64,000 nt of DNA from Brevinematales bacterium. GTDB taxonomy: Bacteria > Spirochaetota > Brevinematia > DTOW01. Under the pieces are notes generated by a model. It saw nothing but the letters and a program-made list of their open reading frames with translations. It had not been told where the DNA came from and did no database searches. The translations under genes and the position numbers were made by a program. Shown here one piece after another: positions 5,661 to 15,913 of this stretch. Every line of letters starts with the position of its first letter. Within the stretch, counting starts at the first letter, position 1. Where the stretch lies: assembly GCA_026415355.1 (NCBI GenBank), contig JAOAHF010000010.1, positions 12,548 to 76,547 of the forward strand, in the 5' to 3' direction.

Positions 5661-5892
5661 AACAAAACTATCGCTTAAGAAAGTACCGATTTCTTTTACT
5701 AGAAGTTTATTGTATTTTAGAGAAAATTGTTTGCTTAGTATCTGTTAAGGCAAAAGGAAGTAAGTAAGTATTGTACATAATTAAGTAATATAAGTGATAC
5801 TTAAAATCTTGGAATTTAACAACTTTATAATGGATTTTTTGAAAATACTTTTTTGTATTAGTTATACTTAAATCCTATCTAGGAGGTTTATA

Positions 5893-6957
5893 ATGTCTAA
5901 ACAGTATGATATTGCTTTGATACCTGGAGATGGTACTGGACCTGAGGTTATAAACGAAGGTGTTAAGGTGCTTAAGGCTGTTGGATCCAAATATGGTATT
6001 GAATTTAAGTTTGTTAATTACCCTTATGGAGGAGAACACTATCTTAAGACAGGAGAAGTTTTACCTGACAGTGCTATACAGGAATTCAAGGATTTTGATG
6101 CTATATATTTGGGTGCGGTAGGAGATCCTAGGGTTAAACCAGGGATTCTAGAGAGAGGTATATTACTTAAGTTAAGGTTTGACCTTGATTTATATGTTAA
6201 TTTAAGACCTGCACATCTGTACGAAGGAGTTTGGACACCTTTGAAAGATAAAGGGCCTAATGAGATAAACTTTACTGTTATAAGGGAGAATACTGAGGGG
6301 TTATACGTTGGTGCAGGAGGATTTTTGTACAAAGGTACTCCAAGAGAAGTAGCAGTTCAGGAAATGATATGTACTAGACATGGTACTGAAAGGATAATAA
6401 GGTTTGCTTTTGATTATGCTAGAAGGTATGGTAGAGAAAAGAAACTAACCATGGTTGGTAAGACTAATGTTTTAAATTATGCTCATGATTTGTGGGCTAG
6501 GGTTTTTGATGAAGTTTCGAAAGAGTATCCTGATGTTAAAACAGACTATGCGCATGTTGATGCTACTTGTATGTGGATGGTGAAGAATCCTGAATGGTTT
6601 GATATTATTGTTACAGATAATATGTTTGGTGATATAATAACCGATCTTGCAGCGATAATACAGGGAGGACTTGGAGTTGCTGCTGGTGGTAATATAAACC
6701 CAGAAGGTGTATCTATGTTTGAACCTATGGGTGGTTCTGCTCCTAAATATACAGGTAAAAATGTTATAAATCCAATAGCAGCAATCGAAGCAGGAAGGCT
6801 TATGGTACAGTTTCTAGGGGAAGAAGAAGCTGCAAAGGCTATACAAGAAGCAGTTAAGAAAACCGTGAAAATGATGAAAAGTATGAACGCAGGACAAATG
6901 GGATATTCAACTACTGAAGTAGGTGACCTAGTTATTAAACATTTACTTTCAGAGTAG
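5893..6957 (+). CDS. leuB: 3-isopropylmalate dehydrogenase
   Basis: IPGDGTGPEV, LRFDLDLYVNLRP, IRENTEGLY, DNMFGDIITDLAA, FEPMGGSAPK; SD AGGAGG. Confidence 0.85.
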   Translation: MSKQYDIALIPGDGTGPEVINEGVKVLKAVGSKYGIEFKFVNYPYGGEHYLKTGEVLPDSAIQEFKDFDAIYLGAVGDPRVKPGILERGILLKLRFDLDLYVNLRPAHLYEGVWTPLKDKGPNEINFTVIRENTEGLYVGAGGFLYKGTPREVAVQEMICTRHGTERIIRFAFDYARRYGREKKLTMVGKTNVLNYAHDLWARVFDEVSKEYPDVKTDYAHVDATCMWMVKNPEWFDIIVTDNMFGDIITDLAAIIQGGLGVAAGGNINPEGVSMFEPMGGSAPKYTGKNVINPIAAIEAGRLMVQFLGEEEAAKAIQEAVKKTVKMMKSMNAGQMGYSTTEVGDLVIKHLLSE

Positions 6958-7081
6958 AAGATAATTATCACTACATTAAAGATTTCTGTAAAATGTGGTA
7001 TATGTTGTTATAATTTAGCAACAAGAACCTTGAATAATTTCCTTATTAGATCTTTGGTTTTAGATTGTTGAAAAGTAGTTT

Positions 7082-8395
7082 TTATACTATTTTGGATAGA
7101 TTTTTTAGAAATATAGTACCTATTTTTTCATCAAAATGTTGTCCAAGATTTTCACGAAACAGCTGTTTTATGCTTTCTATATCTAATTTCTCTCTATAAA
7201 CTCTTGAGGAATTAAGGGCATCAAATACATCAGCAATTGTGGTTATTTTTACATAATCTGGTATGAGTTTGCCATTTAGTCTTAAAGGGTATCCCTCTCC
7301 ATTAACTTTTTCGTGGTGTAGGTATGCTATATCACTTAGATCTCTAAATAAACTAACAGAGGAAAGTAATTCCTTACCTATAACAGTATGTGTTTTCATT
7401 TCTTCCATCATGTCAGGTGGTAGTTTTGATGGATGTAACAAAACCTCATCTCTTACTCCTAATTTTCCTATATCGTGTAACAAAGCACCTAGTTCTATGA
7501 AGTTTGGCATATGCGTATTTTTATATATAATCTTGGCAAGATTATAAGAATATTTTGCTACTCTTTCAGAATGACCTTTAGTGTAGTAATCTCTTTCTTC
7601 AAGAATCGATATTAACATAACTGTAAACCATCTAAATATGGTTTCCTCGTTTTTGTATTCTTTTGAGAGTTCTTCTAGTAGGGTTTTGTAGTTTTTGTAT
7701 TTTTCTATTGTAGTTCTTATCATGTTTATTATTGTGGTAAGGTTGAATAATGTTATTACGGATAACGAAATGATTGTGTTTATGATGTTTTTGTTTTCTT
7801 CTTTTGTAAGTTCGTTTGCTACTGAAATTGCTAGAAGAGATGGTAGCAAAATGGTTATGAATATACTGATTTTTTTGATATTATTTAATTCTTTGTTGTA
7901 TATTCCGAAGAAATTAACACTTTCGATTACAGAAACTGATATTGGTATTGTTATTATCAACAGCTTAACAGATGGTATGTCGTATAGGGAACCAAGTATT
8001 AGAAATATTGAAGTAATAAAAGTTACAATACCGTATATAGTTAAGTAGGATTTACTTATTGTATCGTGTCTATTGGTTGTTATTCTTACTATCAATGGTG
8101 ATACGAAGATAAATGCCGTGAGTGAAAGATCTTTTAGAAGGCGAAATGTTGTATAACCATATACGTTTTCGAAAATATAGTTAAATAGAAACAAAAATAT
8201 AAGGGAGTTTGTTAGGAAGTTTGTGAGAAAGTGTCTTTGGTTATAGTATAAGTACCTTAAGTTTTTCTGTTTAAGAATCGAAAAATTTGATAGTATTAGA
8301 GATAAATATATAAACCATGAAACAAATGTTATACCGGCGTTTATTGATATTACTATGTTTTCTATGTTCTCATCTAATGTATCTTCAAGAAACAT
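7082..8395 (-). CDS. Membrane-anchored HD-GYP phosphodiesterase
   Basis: About 6-7 hydrophobic N-terminal segments, then GHSERVA, LHDIGK, HHEKVNGEGYP, IADVFDAL; start overlaps the thiH stop. Confidence 0.88.
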   Translation of the reverse strand: MFLEDTLDENIENIVISINAGITFVSWFIYLSLILSNFSILKQKNLRYLYYNQRHFLTNFLTNSLIFLFLFNYIFENVYGYTTFRLLKDLSLTAFIFVSPLIVRITTNRHDTISKSYLTIYGIVTFITSIFLILGSLYDIPSVKLLIITIPISVSVIESVNFFGIYNKELNNIKKISIFITILLPSLLAISVANELTKEENKNIINTIISLSVITLFNLTTIINMIRTTIEKYKNYKTLLEELSKEYKNEETIFRWFTVMLISILEERDYYTKGHSERVAKYSYNLAKIIYKNTHMPNFIELGALLHDIGKLGVRDEVLLHPSKLPPDMMEEMKTHTVIGKELLSSVSLFRDLSDIAYLHHEKVNGEGYPLRLNGKLIPDYVKITTIADVFDALNSSRVYREKLDIESIKQLFRENLGQHFDEKIGTIFLKNLSKIV

Positions 8396-9524
8396 GGAAT
8401 TCTTTAATCCAGTTTACAAAGGTAGGTAGTAATCCTTTAGATTTTAGCATTTCTGTAAACTCTTGTATGGTTCTTTCGTCGGAGATATCAAATTGTGATG
8501 ATTTTATATTTTGTGAGTAGCCACCTACTGCGGTTGATGATTCTGCTGACATTCTAGTAGGACCTAGAAGTGCTATATTGTCTCTAAATGTACTAGATTC
8601 TCTAGTCGAGATGTTTATGGATACTCTTTTTAGGAATATTCTTGCAACTGTTATAAATTGTACCAAATCTATATCGCTGACAGGATATAGGTCGAATTTG
8701 AAATTACTACTATTGTGTATAGGTCTCATTCTAGGAAATGAAATACCTATTTCGACATTGGGATATGTTTCAAAGAGATATTCTGCATGTTTGAGTACGA
8801 AAAATACTTCTCTTCTTACAGGTGCTAATCCTAGTAAAGCTCCTATATTTATCTCTCTAAATCCAGATCTGCATCCCCTATCTGGTGTTTCCAATCTGTA
8901 TGTGTAGTTTTTCTTAGGACCAAACAAATGGAGTTTGTCGTAGATTTCTTTGTTATATACTTCTTGATATACTATTAGACCCTCTGCTCCACTTTCTATT
9001 ACCTTTTTATAATCTTCTTCATCCATTGGGTATATTTCAATAGAAACTTCATCAAAGTACTCCTTTAAAACCCTTATAACACTTGTTATGTATTCTACGC
9101 CGACTAATTTAGATTCACCTGTAAGTAGTAGCACGTGTCTTATACCTTTACTTCTTAAGATTTTGGCTTCTTCTCTGACTTTATCTAAAGGTAGGGTTGT
9201 CCTTTTGAATTTTTCAAGTACGCTAAAACCGCAATACAAACATGCGTTTACACAATGATCTGATACGTACAGTGGAGCGTATATGAAAATTACATTTCCA
9301 AAAAACTGTCTTGTTATTTTGTAGGACTTTCTTGCCAAAAGTTCTATGTATTTATGTGCTTTAGGTGATAATAGGGCAATTAGGTCGTTGTCATTTAAAT
9401 ATTCTTTTGTTAAAGCTTTTTCAACATCATCGTATGATACATCTTCAAACAATTTTTCAAAGTTCCAGCTATAATACTTTTCTAGAATCTGTAAGAAACT
9501 GCTTTTTTCTTTTAGTATTATCAT
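8385..9524 (-). CDS. thiH: 2-iminoacetate synthase ThiH (radical SAM tyrosine lyase)
   Basis: YAPLYVSDHCVNACLYCGF (CxxxCxxC), YQEVY, GPKKNYTYRL, IGALLGL, SFPRMRP, ISTRES. Confidence 0.88.
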   Translation of the reverse strand: MIILKEKSSFLQILEKYYSWNFEKLFEDVSYDDVEKALTKEYLNDNDLIALLSPKAHKYIELLARKSYKITRQFFGNVIFIYAPLYVSDHCVNACLYCGFSVLEKFKRTTLPLDKVREEAKILRSKGIRHVLLLTGESKLVGVEYITSVIRVLKEYFDEVSIEIYPMDEEDYKKVIESGAEGLIVYQEVYNKEIYDKLHLFGPKKNYTYRLETPDRGCRSGFREINIGALLGLAPVRREVFFVLKHAEYLFETYPNVEIGISFPRMRPIHNSSNFKFDLYPVSDIDLVQFITVARIFLKRVSINISTRESSTFRDNIALLGPTRMSAESSTAVGGYSQNIKSSQFDISDERTIQEFTEMLKSKGLLPTFVNWIKEFHVS

Positions 9525-10925: not shown

Positions 10926-12284
10926 TTATACTTTCATTATTCTGTATATTACTATTCCTGCGATAATTAAGATTGAGTTAATTTTCACAAGGTTTGCTGT
11001 TAAAAGGTCAAGCATGCCCTTTTGGATATAATTATCTCTAAAAGCCCATTTAATGTTGTTTATGGCTAGTGGTAATGAGAATAGTCCTATTAATGTCCAT
11101 ATGGGTAAGAATCCCAGTATTATAGCAATTAACAGAGAGAGGTAAGATGATATTACTAAAAATGCATAGTAGTATTTTGATAATTCTTGTCCTAGTATTC
11201 CCGCAAATGTTCTATATCCTGAATTTAAGTCATCTTGTATGTCTCTCATATTGTTACCATGAAGTATTGCTACTACTAGTAAAGATATTGGTAAGAAACT
11301 TACTATTACTGAAAGGTTTAGTATGGTAGTTTGTACGAAATATGATCCGAAAAATATACCGCTCCAAGCTATAAATACTGCTATATCTCCGAGTCCGACG
11401 TATTTAAATCCAAATCCTATGAATGTATAGAATAATCCTAGTATTCCACCTATTAAGACTAGGTATAAAAATGTAGTGTTGAATCCTATGAGATACCATA
11501 TTATACTACCTATAACTAAAGCAGAAAATATAAGTGTTATCCCTACTAGTAATACTTCTTTAGGTTTGAGTAGTCCTTCAACTAATACTCTACTTGATCC
11601 TAGGGTTTTCCAGTTATCAGCACCTTTCTTATAATCAAAGTAATCAGATATAGCGTTGACGCCTAAGTGAACTAGCATAGCACTTATGAGTGTTAGAGAA
11701 AACTTTATTATATCGATTACAGGAGCAAGTAGTGTTCCCATTACGACTGCACTTATAGTTGCTACCAAAGACCATGGTCTGGTTGATTGTATTACATATT
11801 TTAATTTAGGTTCACTTGACATTTCTTTTGCTATTTTTTCTCTTGTATAATCGTCGACATCTACTTCAAATCTAGGTTTCCATCCTTCTTGAAAATAGCT
11901 TACATAAAGTTTGCTTAATTTTATCTTGACTACTGCTGTATTAGGATTAGATTTTAGAAACGGCACTATGGAAAAATTTTTGCTGGTTATTATACTTCTT
12001 TCAGGTGTTTTGTCAGTGTCTCCTAAAATTTCTGCTATCCCTATCCCTTGTATGAATGCTGATGGATCATTTTTTTCAATCACAAAAAATACTTCTGGGT
12101 TCTCAATTATGTTTTTGAAAGTATGTCCATCTTTTTCTAGTATGACGTATATATTGCCATTTTTTTCGCCATAGTAGACCTTAGTTGACCATACATTGCC
12201 TTTGCTGTTTTTAGTTGTTAAAGTTATAGTGTTGTTTTGTTTTAATATTTTAGTTATCGCTGATATCTTATCTTTATCTGTCAT
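10926..12284 (-). CDS. UbiA/MenA-family prenyltransferase fused to an N-terminal pyridoxamine-5'-phosphate-oxidase-like split-barrel domain
   Basis: C-terminal ~290 aa: TRPWSL, NAISDYFDYKKGAD, NNMRDIQDDLNSGYRT, many TMs (MenA-like). N-terminal ~140 aa: TITLTT...STKVYY...HTFKNIIENPEV...IQGIG (PNPOx-like pattern). SD AGGAG. Confidence 0.8.
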   Translation of the reverse strand: MTDKDKISAITKILKQNNTITLTTKNSKGNVWSTKVYYGEKNGNIYVILEKDGHTFKNIIENPEVFFVIEKNDPSAFIQGIGIAEILGDTDKTPERSIITSKNFSIVPFLKSNPNTAVVKIKLSKLYVSYFQEGWKPRFEVDVDDYTREKIAKEMSSEPKLKYVIQSTRPWSLVATISAVVMGTLLAPVIDIIKFSLTLISAMLVHLGVNAISDYFDYKKGADNWKTLGSSRVLVEGLLKPKEVLLVGITLIFSALVIGSIIWYLIGFNTTFLYLVLIGGILGLFYTFIGFGFKYVGLGDIAVFIAWSGIFFGSYFVQTTILNLSVIVSFLPISLLVVAILHGNNMRDIQDDLNSGYRTFAGILGQELSKYYYAFLVISSYLSLLIAIILGFLPIWTLIGLFSLPLAINNIKWAFRDNYIQKGMLDLLTANLVKINSILIIAGIVIYRIMKV

Positions 12285-12338: not shown

Positions 12339-13667
12339 TCAAATTTGTGTATTTTCTTCTAGTATTGCTTCTTCTTTAGAAGCTGAGGTTTTTGGTTCTT
12401 TTGATAGTAGTAACATAATTGATAATGATACCATTAAGAAAGTTCCTGCTACAAGGTCAACTATTATTATCTCTATGAATGTGTTGTGAAACATTATAAA
12501 TCCTGTTATTAGTATAAAATCAGTTATAGCAAGTGGTATTAAGAAATACCAGTTTTTGAATACAATGCTATAGTTTATCAACAGAAATGAAATTCCGAGA
12601 GGTATGACAGCTAATGTGAATAGAGTTAATATGCTTTTTGCTTCTAGGTATCTTTCGCCGAATATCTTGAGTATTATATCTCCAAATAGTGCTATGAAAA
12701 TAAGATATAGTATACTTGCGAGAAGAGATAGAATTATGCCTTTGAATAAAGCCATAATACTTGCTTTGTAGCCTTTTGTGTTAAGGTCTTCTATCATTCT
12801 AGGGAGTACAACATAAGAAATTGGTATTATCACAAATAAATTTGCTTTTGCTATTGTTGATGCTATTGCGAATATGTCGGTATCTGCTTCATTAAAGTAC
12901 CTTCTCGAGAATATAACATCTCCAAAATTTAAGATGCTATAAAACATATTTATAAGTACTATTGGTATGAGTGGTATAAAGTAGGATAATTTTATTCTGA
13001 ATTGACCGTTATCAGTAGATATTTCTCTATATTCTTTGTTTAGGATGAGTATCAGAGATGATGCAATGAATGATAATACAGATCCTACAAGCATAGATGC
13101 AGTTGCTCCTGTGTATCCATTCCAGACTAGTATGTATGGGTAAGTCAGTATGAATCTGGTGAAAGGATATAGAAAAGATACTATTCCTAGAAGAAGAAAT
13201 ATCTTTAAGGATTGAAATAGGGATGATGTTATACTATTTAGATAAGAAAGTATAATTACCATTGTGGCCATGATGAATGGTAAGAAATCAATGTTCATAA
13301 ATGCTGTTATGTACTGATAGAATGGGTATGCTGATAGGAATAAGAGAGATAGTAAAATAAAGGAATAGAGTGCAAATTTGTAAGATATGTTTACTGCTTT
13401 TTTAACTTGCCCTTTTGATATAAGTTCTGATGTTTCTCTTACATTGAACATTCGGAATGCTATTGCTATTGTTGAGAGTATATTTATGAAAGAGTTTATT
13501 GACATTACAGCTCCATATTGGCCTGGTGGTAGAGTTCTTGTGTAGATTATGTTTACAAGGAATGCTACCAAGTTTCCTAAGACTGTGAAGAATGTTAGTA
13601 CTGCAGAATCGAAATAGAATCTATCGGACTTTATTTTGTTTATTGTTTTGTTTATTAATGATATCAT
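12339..13667 (-). CDS. MOP-superfamily oligosaccharide flippase (Wzx-like)
   Basis: About 12 TMs; IIYTRTLPPGQYG, FAIASTIAK, YVVLPRM, IFGERYLEA patterns. Confidence 0.75.
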   Translation of the reverse strand: MISLINKTINKIKSDRFYFDSAVLTFFTVLGNLVAFLVNIIYTRTLPPGQYGAVMSINSFINILSTIAIAFRMFNVRETSELISKGQVKKAVNISYKFALYSFILLSLLFLSAYPFYQYITAFMNIDFLPFIMATMVIILSYLNSITSSLFQSLKIFLLLGIVSFLYPFTRFILTYPYILVWNGYTGATASMLVGSVLSFIASSLILILNKEYREISTDNGQFRIKLSYFIPLIPIVLINMFYSILNFGDVIFSRRYFNEADTDIFAIASTIAKANLFVIIPISYVVLPRMIEDLNTKGYKASIMALFKGIILSLLASILYLIFIALFGDIILKIFGERYLEAKSILTLFTLAVIPLGISFLLINYSIVFKNWYFLIPLAITDFILITGFIMFHNTFIEIIIVDLVAGTFLMVSLSIMLLLSKEPKTSASKEEAILEENTQI

Positions 13668-14105
13668 TTAAATCCCCGTAGATCCGAAACCACCTGTACC
13701 TCTAGACGTTTGTGATAATTCATCTACGACTTTTATACTGACCCTTTCAAATTTTGATATAACCATCTGTGCTATTCTCATTCCGTTTTTGACTATAAAA
13801 GGTTCTTTTCCTAAGTTCATAAGTATTACTATGATTTCACCTCTATAGTCTGGATCGATGGTTCCAGGTGTATTTGGTAGCGTTAGTCCATAGTTTAGTG
13901 CTAGTCCACTTCTTGGCCTTATTTGTGCTTCATATCCATCTGGTAGTTCTATTGATATTCCTGTTGGTATACTTTTTATTTCTCCAGGGTTTATAACAAT
14001 GTCTTCATCTATACAGGCATATAGATCAAGACCTGCTGAGCTTTCTGTTTGATACTTTGGAAGAGTTGAGTTTTTTCTTAGGATTTTTACCTTTAGTTCT
14101 ATCAT
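13668..14105 (-). CDS. dut: dUTP diphosphatase
   Basis: [32 protein letters not shown] motifs. Confidence 0.97.
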
Positions 14106-14329: not shown

Positions 14330-15913
14330 ATGATAGTGTTTATAGATAATTATGACTCATTTGTGTATAACCTTGTTCAATATGTAGGTGCGATATATCC
14401 TAATGTGAAAGTTTTTAGAAATGATGAAATTAGTGTTGAAGATATAAAGAGAATGTCACCTTCTGGTATAATAATTTCTCCAGGGCCTGGTTGGCCAAAG
14501 GATGCAGGTATATCTGAAGAACTTATAAGAGAGTTTTATGACAAGGTACCAATACTTGGTGTTTGTCTTGGACATCAGGCAATAGGTGAGGTGTTCGGTG
14601 GTAGAATAATTCATGCCAAAAGAATTATGCATGGTAAAACATCAGTCATAGTTCATAACCAAAAGGATATATTTAAGGATCTTCCTGTTCCATTAAAGGC
14701 TACGAGATACCATTCTCTTGTTATAGATCCTTCTTCTTTGCCCGAGGAATTAGAAGTTATCTCGAAGAGTGAAGATGAGGAAATAATGGGAGTGAAGCAC
14801 AAAACCTACCCTGTATTTGGTGTTCAGTTTCATCCTGAGTCAATAGCAACAGAGTATGGAATGAAGATGATAAAGAATTTCATTGATATTATAAAACCTA
14901 CCATAAACATTTCTTTGTTTATAAATAAGATCAGTTCAAGACAGGATCTCTCTGATGAAGAAGCTAGTATAGTTTCAGATAGAATAATAAAGGGAGAAAT
15001 ATCTCCTACTGTAACTTCTGCTATTTTACTCGGTATGAGGGTAAAAGGCGAAAGTGTTAGTGAAATTTACGGTTTTGCTAAAAGTATGCTTGATAATGCT
15101 ATTAAGATAAACATAGATGGTGTTTCTATTGATAACTGTGGTACTGGAGGAGATGGTAAGCATACTATTAATATATCAACTATATCTTCTTTTGTCATAG
15201 CAGGTGCTGGTGATATAAAAGTTCCAAAGCACGGTAATAGAGCAGTTTCGAGTAAGGTTGGAAGTGCTGATTTACTTGAAGGTCTCGGAGCTAAAATAGA
15301 TATACCGCCGGACAAAATGGAAAAAATTATAAATGACATAGGTGTTGGTTTTCTTTTTGCTCCTATTTATCATCCAAGTATGAAAAATGTTGCACCTGTG
15401 AGAAAAGAGTTGGGAATTAGAACTATATTCAATATCCTTGGCCCTATAGTCAATCCTGCAAGACCTAAATATCAGTTAATTGGTGTCTTTGATGAAAAGT
15501 TGTTGAAAATTCTACCAGAAGTTTTAGCAAAGTTAGGTGTAGAAAGAGCTTTCGTAGTGCATAGTGAAGACGGCCTTGATGAGGTTTCACCTTCTGTTCC
15601 TACCAGGGTAGCATATTTATCAAATGGAAATGTAAAATATTTCAGAATAAAGCCTCAAGATTTTGGTTTTGATCCCATACCTATTAGTGAAATGTTTGGT
15701 GGGGATATTGAGTACAATAAGAAAATTTGCATTGATATTCTCAGTGATAAAGATATACCGCAGAAAAGTGCCATAATAATGAATGCTTCATTAGGTATAC
15801 TTGTATCAGGTTTGGCTAAAAATCTTTCTCAAGCAGTTGAAATGGCTAAAAAATCGATATCTTCTGGTAAAGCATTGGAAAAACTACAGAAATTCATTCA
15901 GTCAACATTGTAG
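14330..15913 (+). CDS. trpGD: Bifunctional anthranilate synthase component II / anthranilate phosphoribosyltransferase (TrpG-TrpD fusion)
   Basis: IDNYDSF, GVCLGHQ, QFHPES, then NCGTGGDG..NIST, KHGNRAVSSKVGSADLLE, GLDEV. Confidence 0.93.
   Translation: MIVFIDNYDSFVYNLVQYVGAIYPNVKVFRNDEISVEDIKRMSPSGIIISPGPGWPKDAGISEELIREFYDKVPILGVCLGHQAIGEVFGGRIIHAKRIMHGKTSVIVHNQKDIFKDLPVPLKATRYHSLVIDPSSLPEELEVISKSEDEEIMGVKHKTYPVFGVQFHPESIATEYGMKMIKNFIDIIKPTINISLFINKISSRQDLSDEEASIVSDRIIKGEISPTVTSAILLGMRVKGESVSEIYGFAKSMLDNAIKINIDGVSIDNCGTGGDGKHTINISTISSFVIAGAGDIKVPKHGNRAVSSKVGSADLLEGLGAKIDIPPDKMEKIINDIGVGFLFAPIYHPSMKNVAPVRKELGIRTIFNILGPIVNPARPKYQLIGVFDEKLLKILPEVLAKLGVERAFVVHSEDGLDEVSPSVPTRVAYLSNGNVKYFRIKPQDFGFDPIPISEMFGGDIEYNKKICIDILSDKDIPQKSAIIMNASLGILVSGLAKNLSQAVEMAKKSISSGKALEKLQKFIQSTL

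Follow-up and report, generated by a model that had tools for sequence, protein, structure and literature searches.

The DNA analysed here (the window) is a 64,000-nucleotide stretch of contig JAOAHF010000010.1 from a Brevinematales bacterium of the Spirochaetota (assembly GCA_026415355.1). At positions 10926..12284, on the minus strand, it carries a gene whose predicted product joins a soluble split barrel, resembling pyridoxamine 5'-phosphate oxidase (PNPOx), to a MenA-like membrane prenyltransferase of the UbiA fold. Menaquinone synthesis is considered to require a single-domain MenA together with one of two pathways, Men or futalosine, and the locus raises the question of what such a barrel could do on a quinone prenyltransferase. 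An initial annotation, made from the sequence alone, had described about 140 soluble residues of split-barrel type ahead of a complete MenA-like domain with both Asp-rich motifs, and this architecture is correct. We tentatively read the protein as a naphthoquinol prenyltransferase whose reduced head group, possibly derived from scavenged precursors, is supplied or controlled by the flavin-type domain fused to it, and place the probability of this reading a little short of even.

The gene is a single open frame of 452 amino acids with neither a stop nor a frameshift inside, and ends in a stop codon at 10926-10928. Its C-terminal part (residues 168-452; 10929..11783, minus strand) is a predicted member of the UbiA superfamily, MenA/UBIAD1 branch, with intact catalytic motifs. 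The Pfam UbiA family (PF01040) matched residues 180-419 with an E value of 6e-33 and 114.6 bits against a cut-off of 34.2, and with 116.2 bits in the genome search. In the AlphaFold model (predicted local distance difference test, pLDDT, of 93) nine long helices lie between residues 170 and 451, and Foldseek matched this domain to UBIAD1 (rank 1, TMt 0.78), DGGGP synthase and AfUbiA. UBIAD1 was also the sole solved structure reached by sequence (8djk_B; E 2.8e-31, 112.7 bits). The first Asp-rich motif, N-A-I-S-D-Y-F-D-Y-K-K-G-A-D (residues 210-223; 11616..11657, minus strand), is a predicted prenyl-diphosphate/Mg2+ site with the pattern N210-x3-D214-x2-D217...D223; the second, N-N-M-R-D-I-Q-D-D (residues 344-352; 11229..11255, minus strand), follows N344-N345-x-R347-D348-x3-D352. 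Both are invariant or nearly so in 24 and in 102 homologues: N210, D217, D223, N344, N345, R347, D348 and D352 are invariant in the smaller set, D214 nearly so, and D217 and D352 are invariant in the larger one as well.

Within the superfamily, the best NCBIfam matches were MenA equivalogs, each under its curated cut-off. TIGR00751 scored 97.6-98.8 against 102.15 bits and NF004751 scored 129.8 against 264, with the other MenA models (NF004749-54) far under their cut-offs; some fusion orthologues exceed the TIGR00751 cut-off (103-127 bits). Identity to E. coli MenA (b3930) is 29% over 273 residues, and MenA has in common with the fusion the nine-helix UbiA fold and both Asp-rich motifs. In alignments, the variants D-Y-F-D-Y-K-K-G-A-D, R-V-L-V-E, G-F-K-Y-V-G-L-G-D and I-L-H-G-N-N-x-R-D are nearer UBIAD1 than E. 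coli MenA, the motifs common to UBIAD1 and the fusion being D-Y-x-D-x-x-K-G-x-D, R-x-L-V-D/E, G-F-K-Y-V-x-L-G-D and I-L-H-x-N-N-x-R-D. The closest solved relative of the C-terminal domain, UBIAD1 (8djk/8djm), is the menaquinone-4 synthase of animals and has menadiol as its prenylation substrate. Unlike the fusion, MenA lacks the split-barrel domain of about 145 residues, and UBIAD1 likewise has no fused barrel but relies on separate reductases. A role as heme O synthase, fed by a heme-binding barrel, is ruled out, as the C-terminal domain is MenA-like rather than CyoE-like and no axial ligand is conserved.

The split-barrel fold claimed for the N-terminal domain (residues 1-145; 11850..12284, minus strand) was confirmed by profile, AlphaFold model and Foldseek, and the modelled PNPOx-type fold can be regarded as solid. 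At the protein level PNPOx_N (PF01243, residues 9-127) and Pyrid_ox_like (PF16242) scored 25.8 and 26.5 bits against Pfam cut-offs of 28.1 and 28.8, respectively; the same N-terminal stretch reached 29.2 bits, above cut-off, in the six-frame genome search, and a PF01243 match is precomputed for most fusion orthologues. Searched against the PDB, a profile of 39 N-terminal domains found Rv2991 (1rfe) with an E value of 3e-6 and general stress protein 26 (3ec6) with one of 3e-5, and a language-model search placed the domain among PF01243 clusters. The model of residues 1-148 (pLDDT 94.6) matched 219 split-barrel chains by Foldseek at E <= 0.001, probability 1.0 and TM 0.67-0.79, among them 2i02, 2fhq, 3ec6, 5bnc, 6vna, 3gas, 4qvb and 1rfe; these chains span members that bind flavin mononucleotide (FMN), heme and F420. 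Barrel and first transmembrane helix are connected by a linker (residues 146-167; 11784..11849, minus strand) with two short helices, at 145-155 and 161-167 according to DSSP. The full-length model (pLDDT 93.2) has a predicted template modelling score (pTM) of 0.85, which suggests a fixed arrangement of both domains.

The barrel is conserved to the same degree as the catalytic domain: compared with the nearest relatives it is 64% and 59% identical, and the overall protein 63% and 60%. Invariant or nearly invariant are W32, K35, N58, N62, F67, F77, Q79, G80, G82, E85, G88, E95 and R96. The most conserved stretch is the strand F-I-Q-G-x-G-x-A-E-x-x-G (residues 77-88; 12021..12056, minus strand), in which Q79 and G82 are common with stand-alone relatives. 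The fold is that of the PNPOx-like flavoproteins (PF01243, PF16242), including the FDOR-B proteins Rv2991 and Rv1155 and general stress protein 26, and stand-alone PF01243 members share the T-x-T, W, N-x3-N-P, Q-G-x-G and K/R positions. Unlike these proteins, the fused barrel is tethered to a membrane enzyme, its Ser-Arg/Lys-Lys motif is degenerate, and it has conserved residues of its own (K35, F77, G80, G88, E95 and R96 are fusion-specific). In a mapping made by hand, K35 presumably aligns with the phosphate-binding Arg of PNPOx.

The fusion is real, widely conserved and unstudied. More than 100 proteins, 436-479 amino acids long, matched in a word-indexed protein search at 94-100% query coverage and 35-75% identity; their sources are WOR-3, Kryptobacter, Kapabacteria, Chlorobi, Tectimicrobiota, Calescibacterium, bacterium HR11 and Thermoplasmata. 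In a scan of about 186,000 species genomes, one genome per species, at least 419 loci were confirmed. The best 80 of these were analysed; all are full-length, and they come from WOR-3, Kryptonia, Kapabacteria, Chloroflexota (Thermoflexus, Dehalococcoidia) and Thermoplasmata, with Caldipriscus, Hydrothermales, Acidobacteriota and Bipolaricaulia in addition. The architecture thus recurs across many bacterial phyla and in the Thermoplasmata, and one homologue (P0161) has a long low-complexity linker between the domains and is still fused. Source databases name these proteins MenA or UbiA-family prenyltransferases; literature searches on the barrel–MenA fusion found no paper on it and returned one review, which is silent on the fusion. 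The weakest of the alternatives, that an assembly or sequencing error has joined two neighbouring genes, found no supporting point and has practically no chance of being correct, given the intact frame and the many independent full-length copies from many assemblies and phyla.

The nearest fusion homologues are records labelled Spirochaetes and Brevinematales, from the same family as the host genome. Among 301 sampled Spirochaetota genomes the full-length fusion was found solely in this family (five of the seven other members), while the other families gave UbiA-domain matches only. After the homologues from this family, the closest are proteins of WOR-3, with an identity of about 57%. Together with the distribution in the sampled genomes, this points to a horizontal acquisition.

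Is the fusion simply the MenA of its hosts? The comparison of 45 fusion-bearing genomes for quinone genes argues against this. A separate, higher-scoring MenA of about 300 amino acids (TIGR00751, 135-190 bits) stands beside the fusion in three Kapabacteria (G017, G021, G030) and in G027 and G022. In G022 this canonical MenA adjoins MenB, and in G029 a lower-scoring MenA-like gene (93 bits) does so. Seven or more Thermoplasmata genomes have UbiE adjacent to a UbiA-only paralogue, which is for this reason the likelier main menaquinone prenyltransferase there; in one of them UbiE, the UbiA-only paralogue (about 290 amino acids) and the fusion are clustered (G036:C79:8561-12095; L064, about 5744-9314). 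A quick maximum-likelihood tree united 29 of 37 fusion C-terminal domains, this one included, in one clade (SH-aLRT 99), apart from a clade of E. coli and Kapabacteria MenA (99), with no resolution at deeper branches. Scores below the MenA cut-offs, a clade of its own and coexistence with canonical MenA together indicate that the fusion is a distinct MenA/UBIAD1-like paralogue and not a canonical MenA, a refinement of the initial annotation, which is borne out on the architecture.

Across these 45 genomes, a UbiE/MenG-like methyltransferase is present in 38 and CydA in 22, and MenB exceeds its cut-off in two. MqnA and MqnD are clear in Kryptonia and one Bacteroidota genome, and weaker MqnA/D matches above cut-off occur in some WOR-3 and Thermoplasmata genomes. 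As judged from gene content, the fusion is found mostly in quinone-using genomes, often beside a second quinone prenyltransferase, and is tied to no single head-group pathway. The Kapabacteria named above and the WOR-3 genomes G003-G010 contain canonical MenA and/or UbiE-like genes (WOR-3 with 5-9 UbiA-family paralogues), MenB matches below cut-off and weak or absent MqnA/D matches; their naphthoquinone head group may have an unknown or scavenged source.

The host genome (G000; 1.76 Mb, 80 contigs, 96.8% complete) looks fermentative, with an "orphan" quinol oxidase. The fusion is the only UbiA-family gene found in it. The earlier statement that the window has no other men or mqn genes is borne out and extends to the whole genome for every family searched. 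Profile searches gave no match to MqnA/D, MenB or MqnC and no UbiE above noise, and tblastn with E. coli queries found neither MenB/C/D/H nor the membrane subunits of complex I, so that no head-group pathway was detected by either search. The ThiH encoded in the window (439 bits against its own equivalog cut-off of 380) merely brushes the MqnC/E models. The genome does contain intact cydAB, encoding cytochrome bd quinol oxidase (G000:C2:21981-24324; L087:4981-7324), with a FlaA gene nearby, and a candidate NDH-2, 27.6% identical to E. coli Ndh, for which the assignment is generic to the family. Within the host's family, six genomes have the fusion together with CydA, one has neither, and one 93%-complete genome has CydA without the fusion; this co-occurrence in related genomes is suggestive, not statistical. 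The single trans-prenyl diphosphate synthase has its best NCBIfam matches among short-chain types, all far below cut-off, and a Gly five positions before the first DDxxD; a short-chain product (menaquinone-4) is supported neither way. The only other PNPOx_N match of the genome is on another contig.

A link between barrel and prenyltransferase that is independent of the fusion itself came from a search of the N-terminal profile against 1.8 billion representatives, which returned 440 proteins at E <= 0.001. Many of these are stand-alone proteins of 140-160 amino acids, and most of those scanned pass PF01243. In three metagenome loci from soil (L114, L115, L117) the closest stand-alone barrel gene adjoins, in divergent orientation, a MenA-like gene that scores 54-221 bits with the profile of the fusion C-terminal domain. 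This arrangement is a split form of the same pair; the three are 70-83% identical to each other and count as one lineage only. In a further locus (L129; SDBV01004221.1) a distance of about 4 kb separates a PNPOx-like gene from a cluster of UbiE, DsbD-like and MenA-like genes. The segment L129:5052-9917 holds, within 5 kb, the stand-alone PNPOx-like gene, a radical SAM gene, the UbiE methyltransferase, the DsbD-like membrane protein and the MenA-like gene.

Other relatives of the barrel are connected to flavin supply. In protein P0264 a CTP-dependent riboflavin kinase is fused to a related barrel, and clustering of 52 metagenome loci gave a more distant stand-alone subfamily, only about 25% identical to the fused barrel. 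Its genes belong to a strongly conserved operon that is complete or nearly so on the longest contigs. The gene order of this operon in soil metagenomes runs from a CoxE-like VWA protein through two XdhC/CoxI proteins, a CTP-dependent riboflavin kinase (PF01982), a PF02441 flavoprotein (UbiX/Dfp family), an FMN-dependent dehydrogenase-like protein, the PNPOx-like barrel, and a 159-residue protein of unknown type to a HlyD/MacB-type exporter (for example L154:362-9212, Ga0207701_10003032; same order in L128, L137, L146, L148, L153, L158 and others). The operon looks like a flavin-modifying or flavin-dependent module and fits no known pathway that we recognised. T19, T21, W32, Y46, N58, N62, Q79, G82, K102, P123, D130 and R138 are common to this subfamily and the fused barrels.

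The initial annotation had noted that split-barrel domains bind FMN, F420 or heme. Heme is disfavoured, because no His, Cys or Met that could serve as an axial ligand is conserved in the barrel in the homologue alignments. F420 is presumably unlikely as the common cofactor of lineages so mixed, although no search for F420 biosynthesis genes was made. FMN is favoured because relatives of the barrel are fused to, or in an operon with, riboflavin kinase, and by this analogy it would most likely be the cofactor.

From the conservation of the barrel, the split form and the riboflavin-kinase links we infer a redox coupling of the flavin-type domain to quinone prenylation, along the lines that the initial annotation had suggested. 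The UbiA domain would move a polyprenyl chain from prenyl diphosphate onto a 1,4-naphthoquinol-type head group. The topology of UbiA proteins puts the N-terminus and the Asp-rich loops in the cytoplasm, and the barrel would therefore share the cytoplasmic face of the membrane with the active-site cavity. There it would bind a flavin, most likely FMN, and perform or control a two-electron redox step on the head group. Prenyl transfer by MenA and UBIAD1 requires the quinol form; in the simplest version of the scheme, a free naphthoquinone would be reduced to the quinol usable by the transferase, and the same reduction could follow the uptake of oxidised naphthoquinones. In the host, the quinone would be made for the cytochrome bd oxidase from a head group supplied by the community, such as 1,4-dihydroxy-2-naphthoate (DHNA), 1,4-naphthoquinone or menadione. 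In this respect too the fusion would resemble UBIAD1, whose work does not depend on de novo synthesis of the head group by the same genome. Cofactor, acceptor substrate, redox direction and scavenging are what we infer for the protein. Precedents exist for the separate elements: phylloquinone synthesis requires flavin NAD(P)H:quinone reductases at a point between the MenA and MenG steps, NDC1 being the example of a flavin reductase step needed next to MenA in a naphthoquinone pathway (PMC8133638), the split-barrel protein Ddn reduces menaquinone (PMC11841060), and DHNA or menadione from outside is needed by gut bacteria in which menA and ubiE alone are retained (PMC5738691).

Several observations weigh against the proposed mechanism. 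The best match to UBIAD1 tells little about the substrate, since UBIAD1 was the only MenA-type chain that the PDB sequence search returned. In several lineages the fusion coexists with a canonical MenA or a UbiE-linked UbiA paralogue, so its role cannot simply be that of "the MenA", and 23 of the 45 genomes have no clear CydA. The neighbourhoods of the fusion are not conserved across phyla among the 80 loci and name no partner; no electron donor to the barrel was identified. By hand comparison with PdxH, 3ec6 and 1rfe, the Ser-Arg/Lys-Lys phosphate motif, as we take it, maps to G53-H54-T55 here and to G-R-N in most homologues, and position 54 is basic in most homologues, not all. P123 and D130, conserved in more than 90% of the fused barrels and in the stand-alone operon subfamily, are replaced by Leu and Tyr in this genome's own family. 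The variants (Leu, or Met/Ile, at 123 and Tyr at 130; about 11895-11918, minus strand) are lineage-specific and, as read from the alignment, a caveat for a catalytic role of the barrel in this genome.

Another explanation is that the protein is an ordinary DHNA prenyltransferase (MenA) and that the barrel, having no catalytic redox role, caps the structure, mediates dimerisation or senses stress or redox state and so only tunes the activity. The MenA models are its best family matches, with some orthologues above the TIGR00751 cut-off, the canonical flavin phosphate-binding motif is poorly kept, and P123 and D130 are lost in the family. Moreover, we know of no catalytic role for barrels of the general-stress-protein-26 type. 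Against this, the barrel matches the catalytic domain in conservation over many phyla, bacterial and archaeal alike, and its relatives are linked to genes for FMN supply. At least six genomes have a canonical MenA besides the fusion, which speaks for a function of its own, and no DHNA pathway was detected in the host genome, a point in which the fusion differs from MenA. On balance we regard this explanation as unlikely.

A role of the barrel after prenylation, as a membrane-tethered flavin quinone reductase or quinol oxidase acting on the lipid quinone, is harder to sustain and its probability is low. It could ready demethylmenaquinone for methylation, like plant NDC1, or feed the quinone pool for cytochrome bd. 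Besides the NDC1/QR2 precedent (PMC8133638) and that of Ddn as a split-barrel menaquinone reductase (PMC11841060), the UbiE/MenG genes in 38 of the 45 genomes agree with such a role, as does the host's combination of CydAB with no detected complex I membrane arm. The precedents are analogies in mode of action, not in family membership: Ddn/Fqr are F420H2-dependent menaquinone reductases, Ddn being from another branch of the split barrels, NDC1 and QR2 are flavin quinone reductases of phylloquinone synthesis, NDC1 differs in fold from the fused barrel, and neither Ddn nor NDC1 is fused to a prenyltransferase. The host's own family has no UbiE/MenG match, so that the barrel cannot serve there to ready the quinone for methylation. 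The host genome already has a candidate NDH-2, and a biosynthetic enzyme would be an odd scaffold for a bulk respiratory reductase.

Lower still is the probability that the acceptor is no naphthoquinol at all and that the UbiA domain prenylates a flavin or aromatic cofactor held by the barrel, yielding a membrane-anchored cofactor or another prenylated aromatic. The UbiA superfamily takes very diverse substrates. In line with such an acceptor, the fusion forms its own clade below the MenA equivalog cut-offs, many fusion genomes have no clear MenB or MqnA/D, and a related stand-alone barrel lies beside riboflavin kinase and a flavoprotein of PF02441, the family that includes the flavin prenyltransferase UbiX. 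That barrel, however, belongs to the operon subfamily with its low identity to the fused one. The 29% identity to E. coli MenA, the 112.7-bit match to UBIAD1 with the same motif variants, the clustering of UbiE with the fusion in L064, and the split or loose forms that adjoin MenA-like and UbiE genes all speak for a naphthoquinol-type acceptor.

Gene neighbourhoods were considered as a guide to function and dropped, as clustering of the 80 loci gave no partner common across phyla and synteny at clade level only. A small stand-alone PNPOx gene next to the fusion was seen neither in these loci nor near the present gene, so that this subfamily has a single barrel and no such partner gene. An aldo/keto reductase adjoins the fusion in both Kryptonia and Thermoplasmata; as a co-transferred module it is ruled out, the copies of the two groups being only 27-33% identical. 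The Thermoplasmata loci L069-L083 have the order weak MqnA/D-like gene (244 amino acids), phosphoglucose isomerase, DUF6015, fusion, followed by a divergent NADPH-dependent FMN reductase (PF03358) and an aldo/keto reductase; of these, the FMN reductase would suit a flavin-dependent barrel and occurs in this position in a single clade only. In the window, the fusion gene is the last of a same-strand run after a dUTPase (13668-14105) and a membrane protein weakly resembling MOP flippases (12339-13667). Downstream follow RlmD on the opposite strand, then ThiH and an HD-domain protein that resembles cyclic di-GMP phosphodiesterases. These two and a TrpG-TrpD fusion, a bifunctional anthranilate synthase II/phosphoribosyltransferase (682.8 bits against a cut-off of 670), occupy 14330-15913 (plus strand) and 7082-9524 (minus strand) and are all ordinary.

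Should the barrel be merely regulatory, the outcome would be a modest refinement of annotation. Should it reduce free naphthoquinones for prenylation, the fusion would constitute a one-enzyme route of quinone salvage. A bolder form of this proposal, which we consider rather doubtful, is that of a self-contained prokaryotic vitamin-K salvage enzyme, a counterpart of UBIAD1 with a built-in flavin reductase that would turn scavenged menadione, 1,4-naphthoquinone or oxidised DHNA into membrane menaquinone; alternatively, the fusion could mark a third route to the naphthoquinone head group. If true, salvage would explain the quinone source of small fermentative genomes with an "orphan" cytochrome bd oxidase, and of hot-spring lineages that have MenA/UbiE without a clear Men or Mqn pathway. 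Inferences on respiratory capacity and quinone cross-feeding from genomes of uncultured anaerobes would then have to be drawn differently, and for the formation of vitamin K2 in animals the fusion would offer a natural model, with two domains, of the step carried out by a reductase plus UBIAD1.

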